From: Caldisericia bacterium
GTDB taxonomy: Bacteria; Caldisericota; Caldisericia; JAAYUI01
Direction: 5' to 3'
DNA: 64,000 nucleotides
Assembly: GCA_963674785.1 (NCBI GenBank)
Contig: OY771555.1
Span: 128,001-192,000 of the forward strand
Positions 37,984-51,511 of the stretch are shown in pieces. The position numbers were made by a program, and so were the translations under genes. Below the pieces are notes generated by a model. That model saw only the letters and a program-made list of their open reading frames with translations. It searched no databases and had not been told where the DNA came from. Each line of letters starts with the position of its first letter. Position 1 is the stretch's first letter.

Positions 37984-38059
37984 GGGCGGGTGGCTCAGTT
38001 GGTAGAGCATTTCCTTCACACGGAAGAGGTCGCAGGTTCGAGTCCTGTCTCGCCCACCA
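37984..38059 (+). tRNA. tRNA-Val (CAC)
   Basis: Acceptor GGGCGGG/CTCGCCC-A-CCA, D-arm GCTC/GAGC, anticodon loop TTCACAC, T-loop GTTCGAG. Confidence 0.97.
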
Positions 38060-38093: not shown

Positions 38094-40112
38094 TTGTTGC
38101 TTTACACGGTACCAATAGTCGGCTTACTTGGACTTATCACAGCACTAATACTTGGTGTTGGAATTTCAAGAAGTGATCCGGGAATCGGAAAAATGGTAAG
38201 CATTGCCGCCGCAATTAGAGCCGGGGCATTCGCATTCCTCCTGAAAGAATACCAATATATGCTTATCGCATCAATCCCATTTGGAATTGCAATTGCGTGG
38301 ATTATTGGCCTACAGGCACTGATTGCGTTTGTTTGTGGGGCTCTCTTTTCAATCACAGCGGGTTTCATTGGAATGAACATTGCAACGCTTGCAAACAACA
38401 GAACAGCACAAGCAGCAAGTAAACACGGTGAAGGAAAGGCTCTTGAGGTTGCATACTCAGGTGGTGCGGTCATGGGACTTGTTGTTTCATCACTCGGAAT
38501 AATCGGTGTTTCACTTTTCTTCCTCTTCTTCAAAGATGTCACTGATGCAAATACCCTTCGAGGAATTCTTGTCGGATTCTCAGTTGGTGCATCATTTGTT
38601 GCCCTTTTTGCAAGAGTCGGTGGAGGAATCTTTACAAAAGCGGCCGACGTTGGCGCAGACCTTGTTGGTAAGGTTGAAGCAGGAATACCTGAGGACGACC
38701 CAAGAAACCCAGCCGTTATAGCAGATAACGTCGGTGATAATGTTGGTGATGTTGCCGGAATGGGTGCAGACCTTTATGAATCATACGTAGGAGCGATCGT
38801 ATCGGCGCTTGTCCTTGCAGCAGTCGCAGGAGACTCAGTAGAAAAGATCAAGTTGATTCTCTTCATAGTCGCGGGTGGACTTCTTTCATCAATCGTTGGT
38901 ATCCTAATTGTCAAGCTTGGCGCAAGAGCCGGAAAGGTCAAACCTTCAGTTGGACTCCAGCTTGGAACTGGCGTTGCAGGACTTCTTTCACTTGGAATCC
39001 AACTCTACCTTTCGATTTCATTGCTCGGTAGCATCAGATATTTCTGGGCATCCGCAGGCGGACTTGCCGCAGGGCTTCTCATTGGGTTTGTAACTACATA
39101 CTACACATCAGCAAAACCAGTGAAATATATTGCTGAACAGAGCAAAGGTGGCCCAGCTACCAACATCATCGCAGGGTTTGGTGTTGGAATGGAATCAGCG
39201 GTTGTTCCAATTATTATCATTGCGATAGCTATCATTCTTGGGTACACGGTTGTTAATGGAGTCTTCGGAATCGCCCTTGCGGGGGTTGGAATGCTCTCAA
39301 CCTTAGCCGCGACACTAACCGTTGATGCTTATGGTCCAATTGCCGATAACGCAGGCGGAATTGCACAGATGAGTGGACTCGACCCAAAGGTCAGGGAGAT
39401 AACTGATAAACTGGATTCACTCGGGAACACAACTGCTGCCATGGGGAAAGGATTTGCAATTGGCTCTGCGACTTTAACAGCACTTGCATTCTTTGTTTCA
39501 TACACTCATGCAGTTGGACTAAACACACTCAATTTCCTTGAGCCAGGAGTGCTTGCTGGTGGACTTATTGGTGTTGCTATGCCAGCACTATTTTCATCAC
39601 TCACAATAAGATCGGTTGGATCGACAGCAAGCATGGTTGTTAACGAAGTTAGAAAACAATTCAAAGAAAAAGTTGGTCTTCTCGCTGGAAAAGCAGAACC
39701 TGATTACAAAAAAACTGTTAGTATTGCTACTCAGGGCGCATTAAACCAAATGATTCTGCCATCAATCCTCATGATTGCAACACCTTTTGTGGTTTTTTAT
39801 CTTTTTGAATTATTCAAAAAAGGGACAGGTATCCAAGCTCTCGGTGGAATGCTTGTTGGAGCAACACTAACGGGAGTCCTACTTGCGATCTTTATGGCTA
39901 ACGCTGGCGGCGCTTGGGATAATGCAAAAAAATATATCGAAGAAGGATTCTTCGGTGGAAAAGGTTCAAGCGTTCATAAAGCAACTGTTGTTGGGGATAC
40001 CGTTGGTGATCCACTAAAGGACACAACTGGCCCATCAATAAACATACTCATAAAACTTATGTCAGTAATTTCACTGCTATTTATACCATTTTTGTTAGAA
40101 TTAATGAAATAA
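38094..40112 (+). CDS. hppA: Membrane-bound K+-dependent, probably Na+-translocating pyrophosphatase
   Basis: KAADVGADLVGKVE, EDDPRN, DNVGDNVGD, GNTTAA (Ala indicates K+ dependence), ADLYESY, GDTVGDPLKD. Confidence 0.95.
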   Translation: MLLYTVPIVGLLGLITALILGVGISRSDPGIGKMVSIAAAIRAGAFAFLLKEYQYMLIASIPFGIAIAWIIGLQALIAFVCGALFSITAGFIGMNIATLANNRTAQAASKHGEGKALEVAYSGGAVMGLVVSSLGIIGVSLFFLFFKDVTDANTLRGILVGFSVGASFVALFARVGGGIFTKAADVGADLVGKVEAGIPEDDPRNPAVIADNVGDNVGDVAGMGADLYESYVGAIVSALVLAAVAGDSVEKIKLILFIVAGGLLSSIVGILIVKLGARAGKVKPSVGLQLGTGVAGLLSLGIQLYLSISLLGSIRYFWASAGGLAAGLLIGFVTTYYTSAKPVKYIAEQSKGGPATNIIAGFGVGMESAVVPIIIIAIAIILGYTVVNGVFGIALAGVGMLSTLAATLTVDAYGPIADNAGGIAQMSGLDPKVREITDKLDSLGNTTAAMGKGFAIGSATLTALAFFVSYTHAVGLNTLNFLEPGVLAGGLIGVAMPALFSSLTIRSVGSTASMVVNEVRKQFKEKVGLLAGKAEPDYKKTVSIATQGALNQMILPSILMIATPFVVFYLFELFKKGTGIQALGGMLVGATLTGVLLAIFMANAGGAWDNAKKYIEEGFFGGKGSSVHKATVVGDTVGDPLKDTTGPSINILIKLMSVISLLFIPFLLELMK

Positions 40113-40122
40113 AGGAGGCGCT

Positions 40123-41124
40123 ATGAGAAGAATAGGTGTCGTTACATCTGGTGCAGACTGTCCGGGTCTTAATGCAGCGATAAGAGCTGTTGCGAGAAAA
40201 GGCTTTGACCTTGGTTATGAAGTAATCGGCGTTCGAAATGGCTGGAAAGGTCTTATTGAAGATGACGTATATGTGATGCATAAAAGACATGTCTCTGGGA
40301 TTTTGTATCTTGGCGGTTCTATTCTTGGCTCAGGTCGCTTTGATCCCTTTAGTTCAGAGAAAGAATTTGCATCATTCCAGGAGAATTTTAAAAAATATTC
40401 CCTAACATCATTGATAGTAATCGGAGGATTCACATCGCTTCGAATTGCATCAAGGCTCAATGAGGCTGGTTTTGCAACAGTTGGAATACCCGCAACAATT
40501 GATAATGATGTATCATGTACAGAGGCCTGCATTGGCTTCGACACAGCAACAAACTTCGTTACCCACTCACTCGATAGACTTCATGCAACTGCATCTTCAC
40601 ATCATAGAGTAATGGTTGTAGAAGTTATGGGTGGAGGCTCAGGATGGATAGCTCTTATGGGTGGACTTGCAGGTGGAGCAGATTACGTCATCACACCAGA
40701 AGAACACACATCGTTTGATAAAGTTGTCAAACACATTGAACACAGAAGATCATCAGGCAAAAACTTCTCGATCATCGTCATCACAGACACAGCACAAGTT
40801 GATGGAATGCCTTTTGAAATTGGTGATTCACCTCAGACTGGCGTTGGTGCAAAGCTTGCCAATGAAATAGAAAAAAGAGCCGGAATCGATTCAAGATACA
40901 CCGTTCTTGGACACCTGCAACGAGGTGGAACACCAACGGTTGTTGACCGTGCGCTTGCAACAAGATTTGGATACGAGGCAATCGAATTACTCAAACGTGG
41001 TGAGGTTGGTAAAATGACATCCCTTAAGGCTGGACTTGTTGTTCCTGCCGATATGGATGCTGCAACACGTGAACGCAGAAGACCTGACCCAAAAATGTTC
41101 GAGTATGCGAAACTCTTCTATTGA
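40123..41124 (+). CDS. pfkA: 6-phosphofructokinase family protein with a degenerate active site
   Basis: PGLNAAIR, TIDND, GFDTA and LGHLQRGG are present, but GGFT replaces GGD[G/D] and MGG replaces MGR. Confidence 0.8.
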   Translation: MRRIGVVTSGADCPGLNAAIRAVARKGFDLGYEVIGVRNGWKGLIEDDVYVMHKRHVSGILYLGGSILGSGRFDPFSSEKEFASFQENFKKYSLTSLIVIGGFTSLRIASRLNEAGFATVGIPATIDNDVSCTEACIGFDTATNFVTHSLDRLHATASSHHRVMVVEVMGGGSGWIALMGGLAGGADYVITPEEHTSFDKVVKHIEHRRSSGKNFSIIVITDTAQVDGMPFEIGDSPQTGVGAKLANEIEKRAGIDSRYTVLGHLQRGGTPTVVDRALATRFGYEAIELLKRGEVGKMTSLKAGLVVPADMDAATRERRRPDPKMFEYAKLFY

Positions 41125-41151
41125 TAAATTGCAAAATCGACCACAATAAAC

Positions 41152-44100
41152 TTGTTTAATTCAAGATTCAATATAATCAGAAAACTCGGGGAAGGAGGAA
41201 TGGGTGAGGTGTATCTTGCCCACGATACCAGAACTGGGTCTGATGTTGCTCTCAAGATCGCAAACCTTGAGAGTTCAACTGCTAGAGAGAGATTCTTACG
41301 TGAAATTGAGATTCTTTCAAGTATTTCACATGAAAACATTGTTGACTACATAGACAATGGGATCAATGGAAATACTCTCTGGTATGAAATGGAATATATT
41401 CCCGGACTCCAGTTAATCCACTGGTTTAAGGGACAAAGCAATATTGATTTTAAAAGTCTTGCAAAAATCTTTTCTAAGATTGCATCAGCCTTATCTACTC
41501 TTCATACAAATGGGATTATTCACCGCGACATAAAACCCGATAATATTTTGGTTTGTAATGGGGAACCAATAATCGTTGATTTTGGTGTGGCACATCTAAT
41601 CGATAAGGGAGATCGAGCAAAGCTTACGAGAGCAGGTTCTGTTGTAGGTACAATCCAGTATATGTCTCCAGAACAAGTAACGGGAAGCCATATCGATGGG
41701 CGCTCAGACCTTCACTCACTTGGTGTGATCATGTATGAATTATTAACTGGAGAACACCCATACGAAGCAACCACTCTGCCGGGAATGATCTCAAGAATCC
41801 TTCAAGAAAGACCAATAAAACCATCAAGTCTAAACCCAGATATACCCGACAACCTTGAAATGATAATACTCAAGCTTCTGGAGAAAAACCCTGACTTGAG
41901 GTACAAATCAGCCGACGAACTCGAAACAGCTCTTCTGAGGTATTGTAGTGGAGGGGTTCTGACTGAGGCTGTCAATCTTTCACCACTAAAGACTAATGCT
42001 TCAAGAGATATTCCATTCGTTGGAAGAGATAAAGAACTAAATCAGCTCGAACTCTTACTTCACTCAGCAATCTCAGGAAGAGGACAGGCTATTGAAATCT
42101 TTGGTGAAGATGGTTTAGGAAAATCAAGATTGATTGAGGAATTCAGAGCACAGGCTCTTGGACACCTTTCAAAATTCCTATTGTGTTCACCACAAATAGA
42201 GGGAAGCTCAAGACTAGCAATATCATCAATTCTCGACCAACTAGCTGATTATGAAATCAATTTTGACAACAGGATTATAAAAAAACATCCACACATGATT
42301 AGAAGTCTTTCTGCAAAATTTGCAGACTCTGTCGGAATAGAAGAAAAGCCGCCTAACATCGGAGATTCAAAAGATATCCCAAACGTTGTTGCTGAAATAA
42401 TAATCAATGCCTTCCCAGAAATCCCATCTATTTATGTTTTTGAAGATGGAATTGATAGTCTTACATTTGAAATCGCAACAGAGATTTCAAAAAAAATTGC
42501 AGATAGAAAAATAGTTGTGTGTTTTGCGACAGAAAATGAGTTAAGCAAAACGATAGCAGAAAAAAAAGGCTTATCAGGGCAAGCAAATTTTTCAAAACTA
42601 ATTCTTAAACCACTTCAAAAAAATGAAATTGACGCGCTTTCAAGAGCTATCCTTGGCAGAGATTTATCCGAACCAGAAATGGATAAGATCTTTGCCAGTT
42701 CAAACGGAATGCCAAATGTTGCAATCCAGCTTCTCTCAAATATGCGTGAGGGTAGTAGGACAGTCTCACTCACATCTCTACCTGAAAATGTAAACAGCAT
42801 TTATCTTGAAAAAATCTCAAAACTTGGAGGGGAGACAAAACAACTTATTGAAGTGATGTCTCTTTTGAAGAAACCAATTCCAATCGGTCTATTGAGTCCA
42901 ATTTCATCTCTTGAAAAAGTGGATTTTGATCTTGCGTTTGAAACTCTTGATTCAATTGGATTCATTAAAGAAAAAAACATAGGCAGAGAACTTGTTGTAG
43001 AACTTGCAACAGCTGATTTGAAAAAGATAGTCTGTGAAGAACTGAAAAAAGAAAAAGCAAAAGAATACCATAATCGAATCGCTTCAACTCTTGAAATCTA
43101 CTACTCAGACACAAAAGATCAGGACATAAAAAAACGTATAGCAGAACACTATGTTGAAGCTGAAGAATTTGATAAATCATCAGAGCTATATTTATCAATA
43201 TTCAGTTATTACAACTCACATGGGAATTCAAAAAATGCAATTGATGCGATTAATGAACTTGAAAGAAACTTTGAGAAAATAACCAAAAAATCTCTGATTA
43301 TAAATTCTGTGTACTATTTCCTTATCAATTTTCCACTAACAAACCAAATGGAATTGTTTGAAAAATACAAGTTAATTGGTTTGCAACTATTAGAGAAAAA
43401 TGACCTACCTGGTTACACAGTTTTTTCGTATTATTCTGCAATTGGTGGTGCATACTTAAGGCAAAGACTTCTACTTGAATCGAGAAAACACATTGATAAA
43501 GCAAGAACTCTATACGACCAGGTCGAAGACAGTCGAAAACTGGATTTAAATATCCACGAAATTAATCAGGCAATTTTTGAAACAAACATTGAAACGCTCC
43601 GTGAGCTACTTGAAGAGCGAAAACGACTGCTTGAAAACACAAATGCTTCGGAGATTGACTGGATACCTTATTACAATAGTGAAGCAATATATTTCTCTGA
43701 AATTGGAAGCCATGCAAACGCCGTAGAAAACTTTAAAAAATCGCTTTCGATTGCCAAAAGACTCAACCATAAAAGGCAAGAACTTAGGGCGCTCACAAAT
43801 CTTGGAACTGCATGCGCTCACGCTGATCTTAATTTCAAAGCGATCGATTATTATAAACAGGCTCTAAAACTTGCAAAAGATCTTACTCTTGAAAACATTC
43901 ATGCCCTAATCTTAAATGACATGGCAAACCTTTATCTAAATGAAGGTAAAACCGTAGAATACCGAAATATATTACTTGAATACAAAAGACTGTATGAGGA
44001 TAAGGAAATCACAAAGGCTTTGATTGATTGGACATATAATTATTCACACCTCAAGGTTTTAGAAAATGATTTTGATGAAGCAGAAAACATCTTATCAAAA

Positions 44101-44769
44101 ATGAAAAACAGGGTAATTGAGTCAAACAGAAGTTTCTGGCTTCGCGAAGTCCTATATTATGAGGCACTGTGCACATTTGATAAAAACAATTTTAGAAGAG
44201 CAAAACTTCTGTTTTTACAACTCCTTGACCTTTTCAAGATTGATAAATTAGAGGACACCTTAACTCAGCTTTTCATATCAAATATTCATCTTGCCCACAT
44301 ATATGTCATCGAAGGCGAACTTGATGAAGCCGAAGAACACTACCAGAAAGCTTATTCTCTCTGCAGGAGTTACAAACAAGATATTCTTGAAAATAACCTC
44401 TTTTTTGCTGAAGCCCATATTGAGTTTGCAAAATCCATAAAAAAAGGCAGCTTTGGATTCAAAGAGTTTTTTGATGAAAGCTCATGGAGAACCTCATACA
44501 ACATTTTGATGCAGTTATCCAAAAAGTGTGAACACAAAAAATATACTATGTCAATTCTTCCAACAAGTGCTACAGAGCTTTTCGCAAAACTCGTTATCCT
44601 CAGAATAAAAAACGACAAGAAACTCCGGACAATTGAAAGAAGACAGATTTTTGAGCAGGCTGTAAATCAAATCGAACTATTATTGAAAAAATATTCAGAA
44701 CACAATTTTTCTTACAAACGTGATGAAATCATTGAGCTTAATAACGAGCTTATAATGCTTCTCGAATAG
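41152..44769 (+). CDS. Ser/Thr kinase - AAA ATPase - TPR protein (STAND-like)
   Basis: GEGGMGEVY, HRDIKPDN, DFG, YMSPE; FVGRDKEL, Walker A GEDGLGKS; helical TPR C-terminus. Confidence 0.9.
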   Translation: MFNSRFNIIRKLGEGGMGEVYLAHDTRTGSDVALKIANLESSTARERFLREIEILSSISHENIVDYIDNGINGNTLWYEMEYIPGLQLIHWFKGQSNIDFKSLAKIFSKIASALSTLHTNGIIHRDIKPDNILVCNGEPIIVDFGVAHLIDKGDRAKLTRAGSVVGTIQYMSPEQVTGSHIDGRSDLHSLGVIMYELLTGEHPYEATTLPGMISRILQERPIKPSSLNPDIPDNLEMIILKLLEKNPDLRYKSADELETALLRYCSGGVLTEAVNLSPLKTNASRDIPFVGRDKELNQLELLLHSAISGRGQAIEIFGEDGLGKSRLIEEFRAQALGHLSKFLLCSPQIEGSSRLAISSILDQLADYEINFDNRIIKKHPHMIRSLSAKFADSVGIEEKPPNIGDSKDIPNVVAEIIINAFPEIPSIYVFEDGIDSLTFEIATEISKKIADRKIVVCFATENELSKTIAEKKGLSGQANFSKLILKPLQKNEIDALSRAILGRDLSEPEMDKIFASSNGMPNVAIQLLSNMREGSRTVSLTSLPENVNSIYLEKISKLGGETKQLIEVMSLLKKPIPIGLLSPISSLEKVDFDLAFETLDSIGFIKEKNIGRELVVELATADLKKIVCEELKKEKAKEYHNRIASTLEIYYSDTKDQDIKKRIAEHYVEAEEFDKSSELYLSIFSYYNSHGNSKNAIDAINELERNFEKITKKSLIINSVYYFLINFPLTNQMELFEKYKLIGLQLLEKNDLPGYTVFSYYSAIGGAYLRQRLLLESRKHIDKARTLYDQVEDSRKLDLNIHEINQAIFETNIETLRELLEERKRLLENTNASEIDWIPYYNSEAIYFSEIGSHANAVENFKKSLSIAKRLNHKRQELRALTNLGTACAHADLNFKAIDYYKQALKLAKDLTLENIHALILNDMANLYLNEGKTVEYRNILLEYKRLYEDKEITKALIDWTYNYSHLKVLENDFDEAENILSKMKNRVIESNRSFWLREVLYYEALCTFDKNNFRRAKLLFLQLLDLFKIDKLEDTLTQLFISNIHLAHIYVIEGELDEAEEHYQKAYSLCRSYKQDILENNLFFAEAHIEFAKSIKKGSFGFKEFFDESSWRTSYNILMQLSKKCEHKKYTMSILPTSATELFAKLVILRIKNDKKLRTIERRQIFEQAVNQIELLLKKYSEHNFSYKRDEIIELNNELIMLLE

Positions 44770-44798
44770 ACCATAAATAAAAAAGTAAACATTGATTC

Positions 44799-44827
44799 TT
44801 GAAGAAGCCACATTGTTGTTGTATATT
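44799..44827 (+). promoter_or_regulatory. Sigma70 promoter of the leader-ABC-selD operon
   Basis: TTGAAG (44799)-17 nt-TATATT (44822). Confidence 0.6.
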
Positions 44828-44852
44828 CATGGCACTTATGAAGGAGATTGTA

Positions 44853-44942
44853 ATGACAACTTACAGATCGCTTTGAGCAAACAAAGGCAGATGGTTCATC
44901 TGCCAAGCCCAGACGGTCTGTTGCTTCATTTTGACCGTCTGA
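44853..44942 (+). CDS. Putative selenocysteine-containing leader peptide MTTYRSL(U)ANKGRWFICQAQTVCCFILTV
   Basis: SD AAGGAG 6 nt before ATG 44853. In-frame TGA at 44874, then 9 nt and the hairpin GGCAGAT-GGTTC-ATCTGCC, with the same geometry as the selD SECIS. Confidence 0.6.
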
Positions 44943-44967
44943 AAACTTAGACTTAGGAGGTCATTTT

Positions 44968-46131
44968 ATGAAGCGTTTCGTTACATTTGCACTTATTCTT
45001 TTCCTCGCACTTGGAGTCTTTGTCTCGTGTGGTGCTGAAAAAAAGGTGGATACAGAACCGACACCAGCAGACGTCACACCAGCAGAACTCCCTCTTTTGA
45101 GAGTGGGACACGTCAATCAGGATCATCACCTTGCACTCTACGTCGCAGCACTAAAAGGCGAATTCTTTAAGGATCAAGGTGTCTGGATGACAGAGATCAA
45201 ACCTAAAGAAAGATACACACTCCACACAGAAAATGGAGCTATCGCTGAGGTTCAACTTGTCAAATCTAAAGGTGGTTCAGAGATGACAAACAACCTCCTT
45301 GCAGGTCTTTTTGATATTGGCTTTGGTGGAGTTCCTGCAGTTATGAGTGTTGTTGATAAAGGAAAAGATGTCAGGATTCTGATGCCTTTGCAAAACGCTG
45401 GCGACCAGCTCATCGTAAAAAAAGATATGCCAGTCGAAAACTGGGAAGAGTTTGTAGAATACGTAAAAAATAACGAAACACAGCTGAAACTCGGATACAA
45501 AGCCCCAACTGCAGTTCAATACATCGTTGCTCAAAAGGCATTTACAGAAGTTGGAATCACACAAACAGAAGACCCAACAAATACAGATGCAATGGTTCTT
45601 TGGATCAATCAAAAGGGTCAAAATAACATGACCACAAATCTGGCTGCAGGTCAAGTTGATGGGTTTGTAGCAAATCAACCAACACCGGCACAAGCGATCA
45701 TATCTGATGTAGGAAAATTTATCACTGAACTTTCTGTATTGCCACCAGATGGAATGTGGAACCATCACCCATGCTGTATGGTTTGCAGCAATGAAAAGGT
45801 CAAAACAGAATACCCAGAGGAAACAAAACAGTTCCTTAAACTCATCATGCTTGCAACAGACCACATAAATGACGACATGGATGATGCAATCGAAATTGCC
45901 TACGAATTCCTCGGACAAAAAGAAGGGGTTGAACACTTATCCATTCCAACTGTATACTACAACTGCGATGACGATGAAGTTTGGAGAGGTGGAGTTGCAA
46001 CATGGGCAGTTGTTATGAATGAAATCGGAAAATATACAGGAGAACTAAAGGATATCAACGATGAAAGAGCAGTTGATCTCTGTGTTGATTTCACATTCCT
46101 TCACGAACTTCAAAAGGAGTTAGGAAAATAG
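44968..46131 (+). CDS. ABC transporter substrate-binding lipoprotein (SsuA/TauA/NMT1-like) with HPCC motif
   Basis: Lipobox FVS-C, GHVNQDHHLALYVA, WNHHPCCMVC. Confidence 0.88.
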   Translation: MKRFVTFALILFLALGVFVSCGAEKKVDTEPTPADVTPAELPLLRVGHVNQDHHLALYVAALKGEFFKDQGVWMTEIKPKERYTLHTENGAIAEVQLVKSKGGSEMTNNLLAGLFDIGFGGVPAVMSVVDKGKDVRILMPLQNAGDQLIVKKDMPVENWEEFVEYVKNNETQLKLGYKAPTAVQYIVAQKAFTEVGITQTEDPTNTDAMVLWINQKGQNNMTTNLAAGQVDGFVANQPTPAQAIISDVGKFITELSVLPPDGMWNHHPCCMVCSNEKVKTEYPEETKQFLKLIMLATDHINDDMDDAIEIAYEFLGQKEGVEHLSIPTVYYNCDDDEVWRGGVATWAVVMNEIGKYTGELKDINDERAVDLCVDFTFLHELQKELGK

Positions 46132-46163
46132 ACCGACAAAAGATTTCTAAAATTTTATGGAGC

Positions 46164-46973
46164 GTGGGTGGAGCAATTGTTCTACCCCTGCTTCTTTTTC
46201 TTGTTTGGGATTACAGTGCTGCAAGACTTGGCTCATCAACTCTGCTTCCCAGAGTATCCGATGTTTTTGATGTGGTTTTGCATCCCACAGAAGACCTAAT
46301 CAGACAAGGCACCCTGCTCTTCCATGTCTATGTTTCATCGATTCGGGTATTGATGGGTTTTGTGATAGGATCGTTGCTTGCCATAGTTCTTGGAATGATA
46401 ATGGGTTTATCAGACAAAGTAAGGCATTTTGTCACACCATTCATCGAGATACTAAGACCGCTTTGTCCTGTTGCCTGGATTCCCTTCGCGATAATTATCT
46501 TCGGTGGAGCGACCCTTTCAAACACATTTGGATACAAGTTTACTGATTCGATTCTTGATTATGTTCAGATTGCTCAACTATTCATTATCGCCTGGGGAGC
46601 ATTCTTTCCGGTATTAATAAACACGATTGATGGCGTCAGTGGTGTCAGAAAAATATGGGTTGAAACAGCAAAAACGATGAACGCATCCAAACTACAGATT
46701 TGGTCAAAGGTGATTCTCCCCGCAAGCTTCCCATCCATTTTGACTGGGCTTAAGGTTGGACTTGGTATCAGCTGGATGGTTGTAATTGCAGCCGAGATGT
46801 TTCCGGGTCCTTCTGCTGGAATCGGGTATCTGATGATGGAGGCATACGCACAAACTGAAATCCATATTCTCGCTGCCGGATTAATCACAGTTGGAATCAT
46901 CGGAGCGCTTCTGAACGCCATTTTAGCGGTTATCCATAAAACCTTTGCGGGTTGGCAGGCGAAGGAACGATAA
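46164..46973 (+). CDS. ABC transporter permease (SsuC/TauC-like)
   Basis: LRPLCPVAWIP, FFPVLINT, ETAKTMNAS (EAA loop), WMVVIAAEM. Confidence 0.92.
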   Translation: MGGAIVLPLLLFLVWDYSAARLGSSTLLPRVSDVFDVVLHPTEDLIRQGTLLFHVYVSSIRVLMGFVIGSLLAIVLGMIMGLSDKVRHFVTPFIEILRPLCPVAWIPFAIIIFGGATLSNTFGYKFTDSILDYVQIAQLFIIAWGAFFPVLINTIDGVSGVRKIWVETAKTMNASKLQIWSKVILPASFPSILTGLKVGLGISWMVVIAAEMFPGPSAGIGYLMMEAYAQTEIHILAAGLITVGIIGALLNAILAVIHKTFAGWQAKER

Positions 46974-46975
46974 AC

Positions 46976-47785
46976 ATGATAAAACTCAGTGCAATATATA
47001 AAGATTTTGATAAGCAGGAAGTTTTGAAAAACATCAATTTGAAATTCTTACCTGGGGAGTTCAACTGTATTCTTGGGCCAACCGGTTGCGGAAAAACAAC
47101 TCTTTTGAGAATTATTGCAGGGCTTCTAAAACCAGATTCAGGTGTAGTCAAAATCGAGAAGCCATCGATTTCAATGATTTTCCAACAGCAAACCCTTTAC
47201 CCATGGAGAAATGCACTCTCAAATGTTTGTCTTCCACTTGAGTTCAAGGGATACTCAAAAAAAGAACGCATCAAAATGGCAATGGCTAGATTAGCCGAGG
47301 TTGATGTAGCAGATGCAGCCAAAAAAAAGGTCTTCCAGCTATCTGGTGGAATGCAGCAGAGAGTACAGATTGCAAGGGCTTTGGTCTCTAATCCATCAGT
47401 ACTTCTTGCTGACGAACCATTCGGTTCACTTGATGAAAAAACAAGATACAAGCTTCAAAAAAAACTCAGAGAGATAACCCTTTCAAACAATACAACAACA
47501 GTTTTTGTAACTCATAATATTGAAGAGGCAATTTATCTTGGAGATAGAATTATTGTAATTGGAAACAAAGGGGTTCAAGCAGATTTTGATCTTACCACCC
47601 CACACCCTAGAGACAGACTTTCGAAATGGTTTACAAGTAAAATTCTTGAAGTAAGAAATGTTTTTGAAACACTCATCGAAGATGAAGATACAACTGATGG
47701 GATTGAAAAAAGCGAAGAACCCGAAGAAAATAACGACCCATTCAAAACAATGAAACTCGATGTGACAACAGATGAAAATGAATAA
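46976..47785 (+). CDS. ABC transporter ATP-binding protein (SsuB/TauB-like)
   Basis: GPTGCGKT, LSGGMQQR, LLADEPFGSLD, FVTHNIEEA; acidic C-terminal extension. Confidence 0.93.
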   Translation: MIKLSAIYKDFDKQEVLKNINLKFLPGEFNCILGPTGCGKTTLLRIIAGLLKPDSGVVKIEKPSISMIFQQQTLYPWRNALSNVCLPLEFKGYSKKERIKMAMARLAEVDVADAAKKKVFQLSGGMQQRVQIARALVSNPSVLLADEPFGSLDEKTRYKLQKKLREITLSNNTTTVFVTHNIEEAIYLGDRIIVIGNKGVQADFDLTTPHPRDRLSKWFTSKILEVRNVFETLIEDEDTTDGIEKSEEPEENNDPFKTMKLDVTTDENE

Positions 47786-48806
47786 AGAAGAAGAGTTCAG
47801 GCTTACAAAATTTGCCGGATGTGCTGGTTGAGAGAGTAAGTGGGGGCCGGGAGCTCTCAAGAAGTTACTCAGTGACTTACCTGTTTTTGAGTCACCAGAT
47901 TTAATCACTCGTGACGTCAATAAAGCTGATGCTGCCGTTTATAAAATCAATGATGATTTATACGGTATCTATACAATTGATGTTTTCTCACCAATTGTTG
48001 ATGACCCTGAAGACTTTGGTGCAATCGCCTTTGCAAATTGTATTTCTGATGTTTGCGCAATGGGTGGGACACCAGTTCTTGGGCTAAATGTTTGTATGTT
48101 CCCAGCAGCAGCTCCAGTTGAAAAACTCAACCTTATACTTAAGGGTGCATCTGAGTCAGCCCAAAAAGAAGGGGTAATAATTGCCGGTGGACACACAACC
48201 AAAAATGATGAACTCCACTACGGACTCTCAGTTTATGGGACTGTAAAACCAGTAGATCTCAGGCTTTCATCAAATGCAAAACCCGGAGACCATATCATCC
48301 TTACAAAAGGACTCGGGACGGGTATCCTTTTTGCAGCAAAAGATAGGGCTGAGGGCGTTAACTGGCAATCAGCAATTGATTCGATGAAACAGACATCCGT
48401 TATTGCGTCAAAAATCCTAACCGAATTTGGATGCAGGTGTAGCACCGATATTACAGGTTTTGGGTTTGTACCACATCTTCTTGAAGTACTCGAAGAGTCA
48501 AGGGTAGCAGCCAAAATTAATCCAGAATCTCTTCCGCTTCTTCCTGGCGTGATTGACTTTTCTAGATCATTTGCCTGTCCGGTTTTATCAACAAACATGG
48601 AACTTGCCGGGGCAAAGTTCGACTCTGGCAAACATGATCCTAAATGGATCAACATCTGCTTTGACGCCCAAACTTCTGGTGGCTTTATTGCATTTGTTTC
48701 AGAAGAAAATGCCGGTAAGTGTTTAGAAAAGCTTATTGATGCAGGATATCAGGCAGCAGATGTTGGTGAGGTTGCTGAGGGTGAGTCGAAAATTACATTG
48801 GTTTAG
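47778..48806 (+). CDS. selD: Selenide, water dikinase; selenoprotein (TGA = Sec at 47829)
   Basis: The frame is open from ATG 47778 (FRLTKFAGCAG-TGA-ESKWGP) through DAAVY, DVFSPIVDDP, ANCISDVCAMGG, GGHT, TDITGFG and DAQTSGG. The ORF track only captured the part from 48060. Confidence 0.93.
47841..47859 (+). promoter_or_regulatory. Bacterial SECIS element of selD
   Basis: 9 nt after the UGA: TGGGGGC-CGGGA-GCTCTCA (7 bp including G-U pairs, G-rich loop). Confidence 0.7.
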
Positions 48807-48832
48807 AGATATTCCAACCTGGGCTCGATCAA

Positions 48833-51511
48833 TTAATGGTTTCTGATTGGCCAAATTGTTTGTGTTTTGATAAAGTCTTCGTAACCAGACACATATCCAA
48901 ATCTTGACCTATTATAATAATTTGAAGGCATCAATTCAGACTCCAAAACATCGATAACTCCATTGCTAAGGAACTCCAATCTTACAAATTCCAAATCTTC
49001 CCTGCTGTCCTTTAATCCCCTGAAATATTCAAAATCACTACTCAATAAAACAGAACCTCTTTCTGGTAATCTAAAGGTCAAGAGTTTTTTCTCACCAAAT
49101 TTTAAATCTGTTATTTCTATTGATTCAGAAAACCTAGAATAAATAGGAGCAGCTTCCTTTAACTCATCCTTATAAGTATACCTCTCGTGCCCCCAACCCA
49201 TCAAATAAAAAACTCCTGAAAGATTCTCACCAAATCTATCCCCTCTAGTGTTAACTATTTCGAAAGTTATAGTTTCAGTACCCTGATCTATCATTTTTAT
49301 TGAAAATGTTGGGCATGGTTTCGTTTCATACAAATAGTTATAAAAATCACCACCTGCGCCAAAATGGAGAGTTCTATCCTGATAGATTATTTGAGGATCT
49401 CGAATCCACTGAACTGAATCAACCATAGATGAATACCAATACATAGGCATACTATCGATATTAACCTGGAATATATCCGAATCGATTTCTGGGAATTTTT
49501 CATTGTGAAAAATATTCTTAGCAACGGAAAAGTCAATACATGAGATCCTGTCTAAATACCTGATACCACTTAAATATTCGGGGTTTTCCAGGCTATCTAT
49601 GTATAAATCATCTCCAATTGCAGTAATAATTTTCCCTTTAAAATGTTTGTTTATTCCACCATTTTTTACAATCTCTATTCTTTCCATCAATTCGTCATAG
49701 TAGACAATCGTTGATGGTGTGAAGATAAACTCTTTAGGTTTTGAGCTTAAAACAAGTTTATTTGATTCACCTGTTGTTAGATTTATCGATAAAACTAGAA
49801 ATCTTTGTTTCCCTGATGCCCTTTCTTCCAAATCGAAGACTTTTCCAAAGAAATCATTACATACTATATCTGTCTCATCTTCATCTATATCATCGATCCA
49901 TGGACTTATCCTGTATTTTTCCAAATCGATTTTTTCGTATCCAAACTCCAGGATTTCACCAGTCCTCAAATCAATTTTCCGCATAATTCCATTTTCATGG
50001 TACGAATAACAGAAGAATCCTTTGTGGTAATATGATCCAGCGAAAAAATAATCCTCTTCATTAACATCAAAACTTACCTCTCCTCGCATACCACCATATG
50101 ATTCAACACTAACTGTATAAGCATCTTCATTTTCCTCTACATCCACCCTGCATCTAACTCTAGCATTTGAATCAGCATCATTAATCTCACTACTTGTAAC
50201 ACTATCTGAATAATCAAATGTCAAATCGTCCTTTAACGCAAAAGCACAAACAAAAGAATCACTGCACCAGTTTGACTCATGTGAGTAGTCATAAGCATAA
50301 ATTTTCCCATCGATGTTTTTGCCACCTGATTCTGCATTTGCTAAAACTCTTTTTATCAATTCACCAGTTTTCAAATCATAAATATCAAACTTCCCATAAT
50401 CTCTCGTAAACAAAAAATCACCAGCCAAAAACAAAGTTTCGATATGGTTTCTATCACAATATGGGATACTCAATACCTCTTCTTGGCTCTCAAATGAAAT
50501 CACCTTGTAGCATTGATTCCTAAATGTCCCCTCATCTTCGATGAATTGAGCTGATCTCATACAGTGATACTTCTCATTAAAATCATAGGTAACGCTCTGA
50601 CAACCATTGTTTTCAAATTGAATCCTTTTTATAATTTGCCCATCTTTGCCCAATAAAAACATAATTGTTGTCGTTTGTTAATCAAATTCATCTTCCCCCA
50701 CAAAAGTCAGATAAACCAGATATAAATCCTGCCTATTTAATACACTAAACCGTATATCTTCATCATTGATGATTTTTTTGATTTCTTCAGGGAGATCAAT
50801 AAATACTCCTTCTTTAAGATTTGCGATTTTTTCAGCAGTCATAAGCAAAGTGTCTTTCGAATAACGCTGACTTTTCCTTCGAAGAACTTCTTTCCCACTT
50901 TTCAAATCAATATATTTGTATTCATATTTTTCTCTGAATTTATCTGAAGAACCATCAATTTCTCTAATAAAAACCAAAAATTTGCCAAACAAAAGATCAT
51001 TATACATGAATCCTTCATCATCAACAGTAGGAGAACTCCAGGCAATTTGCATATCAATAAAGTCAAAAAGCTCAAGATAATATACACCATTAACCTCATA
51101 AATATTCTCAATATACCGTGTATTCCACTCCCAAGAATTATCAAGAAACCCAATATTTTCAGTTTTCATTTTCTCATCTAAAATCTGATTTTTATCATAA
51201 CCAATCGGATACAGCTTTTCATTCTTAAAACCTGTTAGGTCTTCATATTCCTTTGAATAGATATCCAATGGTCCATGAATATTGAGGTTTTTGTCAACAA
51301 CATATCTGAATCTGTGATAACTGGAATCCATGTATGATTCACCCATACTCTCATCAAAAGGCATCACATCGACCCCAAAGGTCAATGGAATGATTTTCGA
51401 AGGAGCAACAGGCAAATGAACTGTTACTTTCTCATTCTGCCCAGCAGAAATATTAATAAATTGAACAAACACGAAAACAACAACCAACAATAAAACCTGA
51501 AGTTTTCTCAT
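48833..51511 (-). pseudogene. Secreted beta-propeller-like protein split by an in-frame TAA (ORFs 50678-51511 and 48833-50662)
   Basis: TAA at 50680-50678 is followed in frame by CAA ACG ACA ACA ATT ATG. The signal peptide is only on the first part, and there is no SD before the second. Confidence 0.65.

Follow-up and report, generated by a model that had tools for sequence, protein, structure and literature searches.

A candidate selenium importer encoded together with selD in a Caldisericia bacterium

In a Caldisericia bacterium, the genes for an ATP-binding cassette (ABC) transporter lie directly upstream of selD, the gene for selenide, water dikinase, in a 64,000-nucleotide stretch of DNA (assembly GCA_963674785.1, contig OY771555.1, positions 128,001 to 192,000; the whole stretch is called the window). 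Our analysis indicates that this operon probably encodes an importer that is dedicated to a selenium species and supplies SelD. This idea is supported by the overlap between the transporter genes and selD, by an invariant set of Asp, His and Cys residues in the substrate-binding protein (SBP), and by the repeated occurrence of homologous transporters next to selA, selB or selD in several phyla. A model that had seen the letters and the open reading frames (ORFs) without database searches had proposed a selenium uptake system here (the sequence-only reading), and among the interpretations considered this is the best-supported one.

According to the accessible text of two reviews (PMC9312934, PMC13188914; 2022 and 2026) and of a 2024 study on Methanococcus (PMC11097638), prokaryotes have no known transporter that takes up selenium specifically and with high affinity, and our literature search found the family of this SBP nowhere described as a selenium transporter. 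The family is, in our view, a strong candidate for the dedicated selenium uptake system of bacteria that has long been sought. The part of Peng et al. (2016, PMC5029168) available to us mentions that orphan selD genes of at least three organisms have an "ABC transporter-related ATPase" nearby, and it is possible that this ATPase belongs to the same family.

The transporter genes and the selenium machinery of the host

The genes for the SBP, the permease, the ATPase and SelD follow one another on the plus strand between positions 44968 and 48806 of the window, with no gene between them. The first (44968..46131) encodes a substrate-binding lipoprotein of 387 amino acids, a member of what we call the HPCC clade of the NMT1_2/SsuA superfamily; the permease gene (46164..46973) has a GTG start and encodes 269 amino acids; the ATPase gene (46952..47785) begins with TTG, with an in-frame ATG at 46976 as an alternative start, and its product ends in an acidic C-terminal tail; and selD (47778..48806) encodes 342 amino acids if the TGA at 47829-47831 is read as selenocysteine (Sec). 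The ATG of selD (47778) lies within the last codons of the ATPase gene, the stop codon of which occupies 47783-47785, giving an overlap of 8 nucleotides (nt). Both the contiguity of the four genes and the overlap of the ATPase stop with the selD start had been claimed in the sequence-only reading, and the coordinates bear this out. The best explanation of the arrangement is a translational coupling of SelD to the transporter, and the gene overlaps and short gaps suggest that the four genes share a single transcript. The sole RNA run with a match (47519-47550, 32 nt, 90-95% likeness) was dismissed: because its flanks are unlike the operon, we assign it to another organism, and it therefore provides no evidence of transcription.

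SelD scores 267.8 bits with TIGR00476 (cut-off 125) when Sec is read at the TGA. The Sec is residue 18, in the context G-C-A-G-U-E-S-K, and we take U18 and K21 to be equivalent to Cys17 and Lys20 of E. coli SelD. The operon carries the sole selD of the host genome, a single contig of 2.23 Mb with a marker completeness of 92%, and this genome also has selA, selB and a tRNA-Sec gene (selC) that adjoins selB, that is, the full Sec-decoding trait. Neither YedE (TIGR04112) nor selU was found in the host genome at this completeness, and the search for other selenoproteins found no FdhA or GrdA, the GrdA control being silent as well. Close relatives of the window proteins carry Caldisericia labels in public records. 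A hairpin that starts 3 nt after the UGA of selD was tried as a selenocysteine insertion sequence (SECIS) and rejected, its energy being no better than that of shuffled sequences (z -0.27); it is also unusable as a reference for the leader hairpin described below, because the three sequences at hand hold no informative covariation.

Recurrent linkage of the transporter to selenium genes

A pattern-plus-tblastn scan of 185,579 species genomes yielded 70 homologous loci in 69 host genomes. Most of them belong to Planctomycetota and three to Caldisericia; the remaining phyla are Nitrospirota, Verrucomicrobiota, Anaerolineales-labelled bins, Omnitrophota, Elusimicrobiota, Lentisphaerota and Thermodesulfobacteriota. 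The order SBP-permease-ATPase is kept in every locus that is long enough to tell. We called ORFs in flanks of up to 10 kb, clustered them and annotated the cluster representatives, and the commonest neighbours turned out to be SelA (PF03841, 460 bits), SelB, SelD and putative outer-membrane barrels. According to tblastn, 21 of the 70 loci have selA (16 loci), selB (13) or selD (15) within a flank of at most 10 kb, and so do 8 of the 24 loci with full flanks. We assumed no more than three sites with sel genes per genome of about 4.5 Mb, which gives a chance rate of at most about 1.5% per locus; at this rate, about one of the 70 loci would be expected to be linked (P ~1e-21). The link between the transporter and selenium metabolism that had been drawn before from the letters of the window is thus supported by the family at large.

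The linkage takes different forms in different organisms. The selD gene follows the ATPase gene immediately in Caldisericota and in Sedimentisphaerales/Pirellulales; selA, selB, a gene for an unknown protein and selD lie downstream of the transporter in several other Planctomycetota; selD and selB-selA are found upstream in divergent orientation in Anaerolineales-labelled and other bins; and one PVC bin has a sel cluster on the opposite strand. In a quick maximum-likelihood tree of 68 SBPs, the label "sel-linked" changes 14 times, and at least 9 of these changes are forced by well-supported branches. Since the linked loci are scattered over the SBP tree with such forced changes, the linkage is not one inherited accident. 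Moreover, some loci counted as unlinked are short contigs almost identical to linked ones (e. g. L054 and L064 in our numbering of the loci).

The binding protein and its Cys-Cys motif

The SBP matches the Pfam family NMT1_2 (PF13379) with 90.8 bits (cut-off 24.7), and no curated NCBIfam model reaches its own cut-off on it: SsuA_fam (TIGR01728) gives a partial match over residues 215-322 with 59.8 bits (cut-off 163.5) and SaoX (NF040735) 31.2 bits (cut-off 300). TIGR04553, which we take to be a putative selenate ABC binding protein of the PhnD family, is absent from the NCBIfam matches at E<=0.01. As read from the sequence, the N-terminus consists of a signal peptide and F-V-S-C, which resembles what we take to be the lipobox pattern. 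Two motifs stand out in the mature part, D52-H53-H54 and W264-N-H-H-P-C269-C270-M-V-C273. Both had been named in the sequence-only reading, and the family shows which of their residues matter: D52, H53, P268, C269 and C270 are invariant in 33 aligned members, as are G102-G103, G-Y-K-A-P (176-180), P238 and P259-P260. Most of these members read H-P-C-C-C at the second motif. In the genomic loci, Cys-Cys is kept in all 68 that cover the site, and the preceding H-P in 66 of them.

Homologues of this protein form a narrow group. Of the 35 relatives that a word-indexed search retrieved from 5.8 billion proteins, 32 are close clusters (E<=7e-61) and the next one follows at E 2e-7; a full HMMER search of 1.84 billion proteins found 100 representatives at E<=1e-30. 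Among the more distant matches of the family profile that were scanned, 21 of 27 reach the cut-off of SsuA_fam and none that of SaoX. By these comparisons the SBP defines a small, unnamed clade within the NMT1_2/SsuA superfamily. The relatives are annotated as "ABC transporter substrate-binding protein" or "NitT/TauT family", just the kind of generic label that had been predicted for them.

The AlphaFold model of the SBP, built on the family alignment, has a predicted local distance difference test score (pLDDT) of 89.8; in Foldseek it matches best the CmpC/NrtC regulatory domain, NrtA, CmpA, TauA and SsuA, with identities of 12-17%. In the topology of the model, the invariant residues occupy loops after beta strands and the N-termini of helices in both lobes, which would be the places where proteins of this fold class bind their ligands. 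In a profile search, the P-C-C site aligns with the Cys-rich motif of THI5.

Some members of the family are circularly permuted. In P0060 and P0099, the C-terminal half with P-C-C comes first and the N-terminal half with D-H second, and reading of the two sequences revealed that both motifs are retained; P0080, P0089, P0102, P0108, P0123 and P0127 are likewise permuted, as judged by the geometry of their matches. In the ESM Atlas, the second hit is a cluster of 78 SBPs of about 370 amino acids, mostly from Methanobacteriota, that scores nearly as close as the family's own cluster.

Permease and ATPase

In Pfam, the permease belongs to BPD_transp_1 and the ATPase to ABC_tran. The best NCBIfam match of the permease is SaoP (NF040733) with 155.9 bits (cut-off 295), a match that an insertion breaks into pieces of 104.5 and 56 bits in the genome search. 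NrtB (TIGR01183) follows with 115.4 bits (cut-off 209), TauC with 108 (cut-off 342) and SsuC with 100.5 (cut-off 347); the ATPase reaches 179.9 bits with SaoA (cut-off 360). By sequence, NrtB (E 3.5e-25) and CmpB are the only solved relatives of the permease. From this kinship and from the Foldseek matches of the SBP we conclude that the modelled fold and the NrtB/CmpB-like permease point to machinery of the type that handles small anions. An insertion of about 18 residues that is absent from NrtB and CmpB lies between transmembrane segments of the permease (residues ~117-134, window 46500-46560). Among 61 aligned permeases there is no in-frame stop that could encode Sec and no Cys conserved in more than 40% of the sequences, the most frequent one being residue 101 (39%); the gate region A-A-E-M has no Cys. 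The exact gate column was taken from the description in the accessible part of bioRxiv 10.1101/2022.07.06.499078.

Alternative substrates

Several observations weigh against a dedicated selenium importer. No sel gene lies in the fetched flank of 49 of the 70 loci, many of which are on short contigs; none of the nine rows of the Nitrospirota clade is linked; and one member of the same genus (L012) has the operon without an adjacent selD, its two selD genes being located elsewhere. The sequence-only reading had suggested profiling the SBP against selD. Co-occurrence was indeed found, with selD above the cut-off in 66 of the 69 host genomes and selA-selB at a contig end in one of the three exceptions (L018), but it is only mildly informative against a background of 148 selD-positive genomes among 201 Planctomycetota (Fisher P 2e-5, with the caveat that the 69 genomes span several phyla), and we give it little weight because selD is common in Planctomycetota anyway. 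Homologues with Sec in place of a Cys, which had also been suggested as a check, did not turn up: there is no in-frame stop at the site across the 70 loci and no protein truncated at the Cys motif among 184 stored proteins, the absence from protein sets being weak evidence because gene callers would truncate such forms. The cleft placement of the motifs derives solely from the secondary-structure topology of the model and the THI5 alignment. We infer that the Cys-Cys pocket binds a selenium species, with the caveat that a Cys/His pocket equally fits soft metals or arsenite. Finally, the permease has SaoP as its best NCBIfam match, and NrtB and CmpB are nearer to it than SsuC is.

The unlinked loci, and L012 with a retained leader, are what one would expect if the transporter were an ordinary importer of nitrate, bicarbonate, sulfonates or another sulfur compound that is adjacent to selD by chance and uses Cys-Cys in a structural way, e. 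g. as a vicinal disulfide. The matches to NMT1_2 and the ABC domains and the nearest structures, which bind nitrate, bicarbonate, taurine or sulfonates, agree with this explanation. We nevertheless regard it as quite improbable, as the specific models for such systems (SsuA_fam, NrtB, TauC) all stay below their cut-offs, the sel linkage is about 20-fold above chance and recurs across arrangements and phyla, and the operon is preceded by a leader with a UGA and a SECIS-like hairpin. In addition, none of the 10 other NMT1_2 paralogues in 34 host genomes lies on a contig that carries selD, although this control is too small for a strong test.

The Cys-Cys motif and the SaoP match bring up another explanation, an importer akin to the SAO system that would take up a soft metal, a metalloid such as arsenite or an organometallic compound ligated by the Cys-Cys pair; the sel genes would then be nearby only because a downstream pathway, such as one with double-cubane reductases, needs selenoproteins. 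Permease and ATPase do match SaoP and SaoA, and the SBP matches SaoX weakly. According to the accessible part of bioRxiv 10.1101/2022.07.06.499078, SaoX is a lipoprotein of the SsuA type that carries a conserved CC motif in the cleft and often has double-cubane neighbours. In our set, a double-cubane reductase (NF040772, 415.7 bits, cut-off 350) or its activase occurs in 6 of the 70 loci and a class-I methyltransferase with weak ArsM-type matches in 5, and the solved relative 3un6 was crystallised with zinc, as far as the accessible description of that structure goes. All three Sao scores are, however, far under their cut-offs, and the gate region of the permease lacks Sec as well as a conserved Cys. 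The direct partners are selD, selA and selB rather than genes for selenoprotein clients, with selD coupled to the ATPase gene in our operon, and the partners in the outer membrane look like anion porins, not like TonB-dependent receptors for metals. Of the other members of the SAO cassette, SaoB and SaoC were the ones searched for by model in the host genome; neither turned up, a weak negative because control genomes gave no match either. None of the 14 scanned representatives of neighbour clusters matches a Sao model. Taken together, we judge an SAO-like substrate unlikely.

Other recurring neighbours

A putative outer-membrane barrel adjoins the SBP gene in 35 of the 70 loci. These proteins were called from weak-to-moderate Pfam matches, signal peptides and the aromatic C-terminal residue of one cluster consensus (c3), and they comprise 25 Alginate_exp-like, 7 DcaP-like (below the Pfam threshold) and 3 Porin_O_P-like barrels. 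Redox proteins recur as well: a NapH-like ferredoxin is encoded downstream in five loci, and the Nitrospirota loci L046, L059, L071, L033 and L041, which have no sel gene in their flanks, encode a ResA/TlpA-like thiol-disulfide oxidoreductase, an FtrD/EfeU-like membrane protein and two small unknown proteins. These neighbours fit a periplasmic and cytoplasmic thiol chemistry around the substrate. It is conceivable that such a system serves the selenium economy in a way other than nutrient import, in that it might scavenge or detoxify oxyanions of selenium or tellurium so that they can be reduced, or might serve as a binding protein of the sensor type, and the NapH-like and ResA/TlpA-like proteins as well as the resemblance of the Porin_O_P-like representative to ExtI, the porin of a selenite/tellurite reduction operon, would suit this idea. 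The ExtI match is, however, weak (27 bits, cut-off 150), Type I ABC systems that possess an SBP are importers, and the coupling to SelD, SelA and SelB points to assimilation. We therefore consider a role outside nutrient import very improbable.

Of the 15 linked selD genes, 12 have no TGA. In 9 of the 11 linked non-Sec genes that were tested, an AhpD/CMD thiol-redox domain is fused to the C-terminus of SelD (L026, L029, L050, L057, L060, L062, L064, L077 and L078), and in at least one case, the genome with L050, there is in addition a separate selD of the Sec type at another site. It is tempting to speculate that, under selenium starvation, the start-up problem would be overcome by a Sec-free SelD next to the importer.

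In five loci (L020:15600-20800, L021, L022, L023 and L062:3900-8900), the transporter adjoins a cassette that encodes the methyltransferase, the double-cubane reductase (NF040772), a second HGD-D-like protein and the activase. This cassette links double-cubane enzymes, which are associated with SelD, to the importer; the accessible part of Haft and Gwadz (bioRxiv 10.1101/2022.07.06.499078) counts 955 of 970 such proteins in SelD-containing assemblies. The host genome of the window has a double-cubane reductase cluster of its own about 0.94 Mb from the operon (G000:C1:1110536-1115213), with one match over the cut-off and three partial ones.

Another recurring neighbour is a secreted protein of about 420 amino acids without a Pfam or NCBIfam match (cluster c7), which occurs in 11 of the 70 loci (L025:16553-17722, L026:12066-14715, L078:13977-15242 and eight others). 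The protein carries a signal peptide, few of its residues are invariant, and F-E-Y-G is conserved at its C-terminus; its gene lies between selB and selD in three loci and beside the SBP or porin gene in others, and the protein may be another envelope component of the system.

Upstream of the operon, the window encodes a membrane pyrophosphatase-like ORF (672 amino acids), a phosphofructokinase-like ORF (333 amino acids) and an ORF of 1205 amino acids with an N-terminus that resembles Ser/Thr kinases, all judged by translation (38094-44769). These three ORFs (clusters c21, c15 and c16) are syntenic across the genus and lie outside the operon. A tRNA-Val gene is located at 37984-38059.

A conserved leader upstream of the operon

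The gap of 198 nt upstream of the SBP gene is conserved in four genomes of the genus, and all features described here are on the plus strand. A promoter-like -35/-10 pair (44799..44827; 9 of 12 positions in a consensus scan, a consensus match only) keeps its TTGA and its TA-rich -10 in the four genus members. It is followed by a structured 5' leader (44836..44967) present in all four, a candidate for a selenium- or SelB-responsive translational switch. A mini-ORF of seven codons (44853..44876), with an AGGAG Shine-Dalgarno sequence at 44842-44846, ends in UGA at 44874-44876; in all four sequences it starts 6-7 codons before this invariant UGA and ends with Ser-Leu-UGA. If the UGA is read through, the frame stays open for exactly 21 codons in all four cases, up to a second stop (window 44940-44942; TGA in three sequences, TAA in one) inside what we call segment 3.

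Bacterial SECIS elements are hairpins located about 11 nt after the UGA with G-U in the apical loop. Hairpin 1 of the leader (44886..44904) starts 9-10 nt after the UGA, has a stem of 7-8 bp with compensatory changes in 5 of 8 pairs and an invariant G-U-U in its loop (G135, T136, T137). It is thus SECIS-like in its geometry, and a putative site for SelB. Further downstream, segments 2 and 3 (44910..44943) can either form hairpin 2 together (44910-44918 with 44933-44941; 4 of 9 pairs compensatory) or pair separately with other parts of the leader: segment 2 (44911-44920) pairs with the end of the mini-ORF, segment 1 (44864-44873), and segment 3 (44933-44943) is complementary to the Shine-Dalgarno region of the SBP gene (44952..44962). 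This anti-Shine-Dalgarno pairing comprises 10 pairs with 97.5% of the alignment cells paired, one compensatory and three one-sided changes. The two mutually exclusive schemes have 97.1% and 96.4% of the cells paired, with two-sided changes in 9 and 7 pairs, compared to 25-47% in controls slid by 1-3 columns, and coordinated changes are seen in the alignment columns 36, 81 and 104. When searched for with a covariance model, the leader turns up once per genome in the four genus genomes among 93 Caldisericota, and neither in the other 89 Caldisericota genomes nor in the 67 loci from other phyla. Among 22 stretches that a pattern scan picked out of metagenome contigs, two are real, both near-copies of known leaders. 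No Rfam family matches positions 44500-49000 at E<=1.

A translational attenuator keyed to the decoding of UGA would have a layout of this kind, and the leader may sense the cell's selenium status. If Sec-tRNA were in short supply, the ribosome waiting at the UGA would mask segment 1, which would leave segments 2 and 3 to pair and the Shine-Dalgarno sequence free. Read-through of the UGA, or SelB clamping hairpin 1 inside the helix of segments 1 and 2, would allow this helix and the one between segment 3 and the Shine-Dalgarno region (segment 4) to form, and the latter would be closed. The direction of this control and any involvement of SelB are suggested by the layout. In such a Sec version of amino-acid attenuation, the importer and SelD would be switched on when Sec-tRNA is short. 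The idea has to contend with the fact that the leader is represented by four related sequences, that the UGA could be conserved for base pairing only, and that a read-through frame without stops says little here, given the mere 0-2 stops in the other frames. It is therefore a tentative proposal, more doubtful than probable, that the operon is a self-contained selenium acquisition module in which the first dedicated high-affinity selenium ABC importer is joined to a leader that gauges the capacity to decode UGA as Sec.

A model for selenium import and its implications

Our data suggest the following model for a dedicated selenium importer. The surface-anchored lipoprotein, with the fold of nitrate, bicarbonate and sulfonate binders, would capture a selenium compound in a pocket lined by the invariant Asp/His residues and the vicinal Cys-Cys (Cys-Cys-Cys in most relatives); in diderm relatives, the compound would first be admitted by a dedicated outer-membrane barrel. 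The NrtB-like permease and the ATPase would then carry it into the cytoplasm, where SelD, made from the same message, would turn the resulting selenide into selenophosphate for the SelA-dependent synthesis of Sec-tRNA. The most likely ligand is predicted to be a small thiol-reactive form, either selenite, bound as an S-Se-S adduct or as the oxyanion, or selenide or Se(0), bound as an S-Se adduct. We infer the ligand as well as the direction of transport and the hand-over to SelD from the arguments given above.

With this family, the question of a dedicated selenium importer becomes directly testable. It offers a clonable target: a soluble lipoprotein with a defined Cys/His pocket, a transporter of three genes, and natural fusions and couplings to SelD. 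If the proposal is correct, it would explain how selenoprotein-rich anaerobes secure trace selenium, it would correct the label "nitrate/sulfonate/taurine" on these genes, and it would help to engineer the expression of selenoproteins and to read the cycling of selenium from metagenomes. A second and bolder hypothesis concerns the leader; if real, the leader would be the first regulatory element that uses Sec decoding itself as the sensor for a transporter.

Comparison with known systems

The closest relatives in architecture are the small-anion importers NrtABCD and CmpABCD: the binder fold of the lipoprotein (about 390 amino acids) matches NrtA (2g29), CmpA (2i4b) and the NrtC/CmpC regulatory domain with template modelling (TM) scores of 0.64-0.67, and the permease is kin to NrtB and CmpB. 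The identity is, however, 15-17%, the NrtB score is under its cut-off, the D-H and P-C-C motifs and the permease insertion set the family apart, and its partners are sel genes rather than genes for nitrate or carbon uptake. SsuABC and TauABC share the NMT1_2 superfamily and are the label to be expected from annotation pipelines, but the scores for SsuA_fam, SsuC and TauC stay below their cut-offs and there are no sulfonate-utilisation neighbours. THI5/THI13, the HMP-P synthase with the NMT1 fold, is related by its fold and by the alignment of its Cys-rich motif, which presumably binds iron, with P-C-C; it is a cytosolic enzyme, whereas the protein studied here is a secreted lipoprotein in an ABC operon.

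The SAO transporter (SaoX/SaoB-SaoP-SaoA) resembles our system in its SsuA-type Cys-Cys lipoprotein, in some double-cubane neighbours and in its occurrence in anaerobes and selenium-using genomes; in the part of Haft and Gwadz (bioRxiv 10.1101/2022.07.06.499078) accessible to us, the authors propose an organometallic substrate and not selenium uptake. The system described here differs in that it stays below the equivalog cut-offs, has no Sec in its subunits and no Cys or Sec at the gate, and is partnered with selD, selA and selB. The CC motif of the SBP may correspond in position to the one in the cleft of SaoX. The YedE/YedF proteins provide a parallel of another kind, since YedE is a candidate selenium transporter likewise proposed from co-occurrence and selD neighbourhood (accessible part of Lin et al. 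2015, PMC5322559); it is an unrelated protein with 10 transmembrane segments rather than an ABC system, without a counterpart found in our host genome. Its role in selenium transport is unproven, and a yedE deletion in Methanococcus had no clear phenotype according to the accessible text of PMC11097638.

For the leader, the nearest precedent is the 5' untranslated region of E. coli selAB, where, as stated in the available part of PMC13449736, binding of SelB to a SECIS-like hairpin represses translation. In the Caldisericia operon, the hairpin follows a mini-ORF ending in UGA and is embedded in a four-segment anti-Shine-Dalgarno switch, a candidate control of a transporter-selD operon that is known from sequence alone. 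The likeness lies in the principle: in both cases, a SECIS-type leader hairpin ties, or in our case would tie, the expression of selenium genes to the status of SelB and Sec-tRNA.

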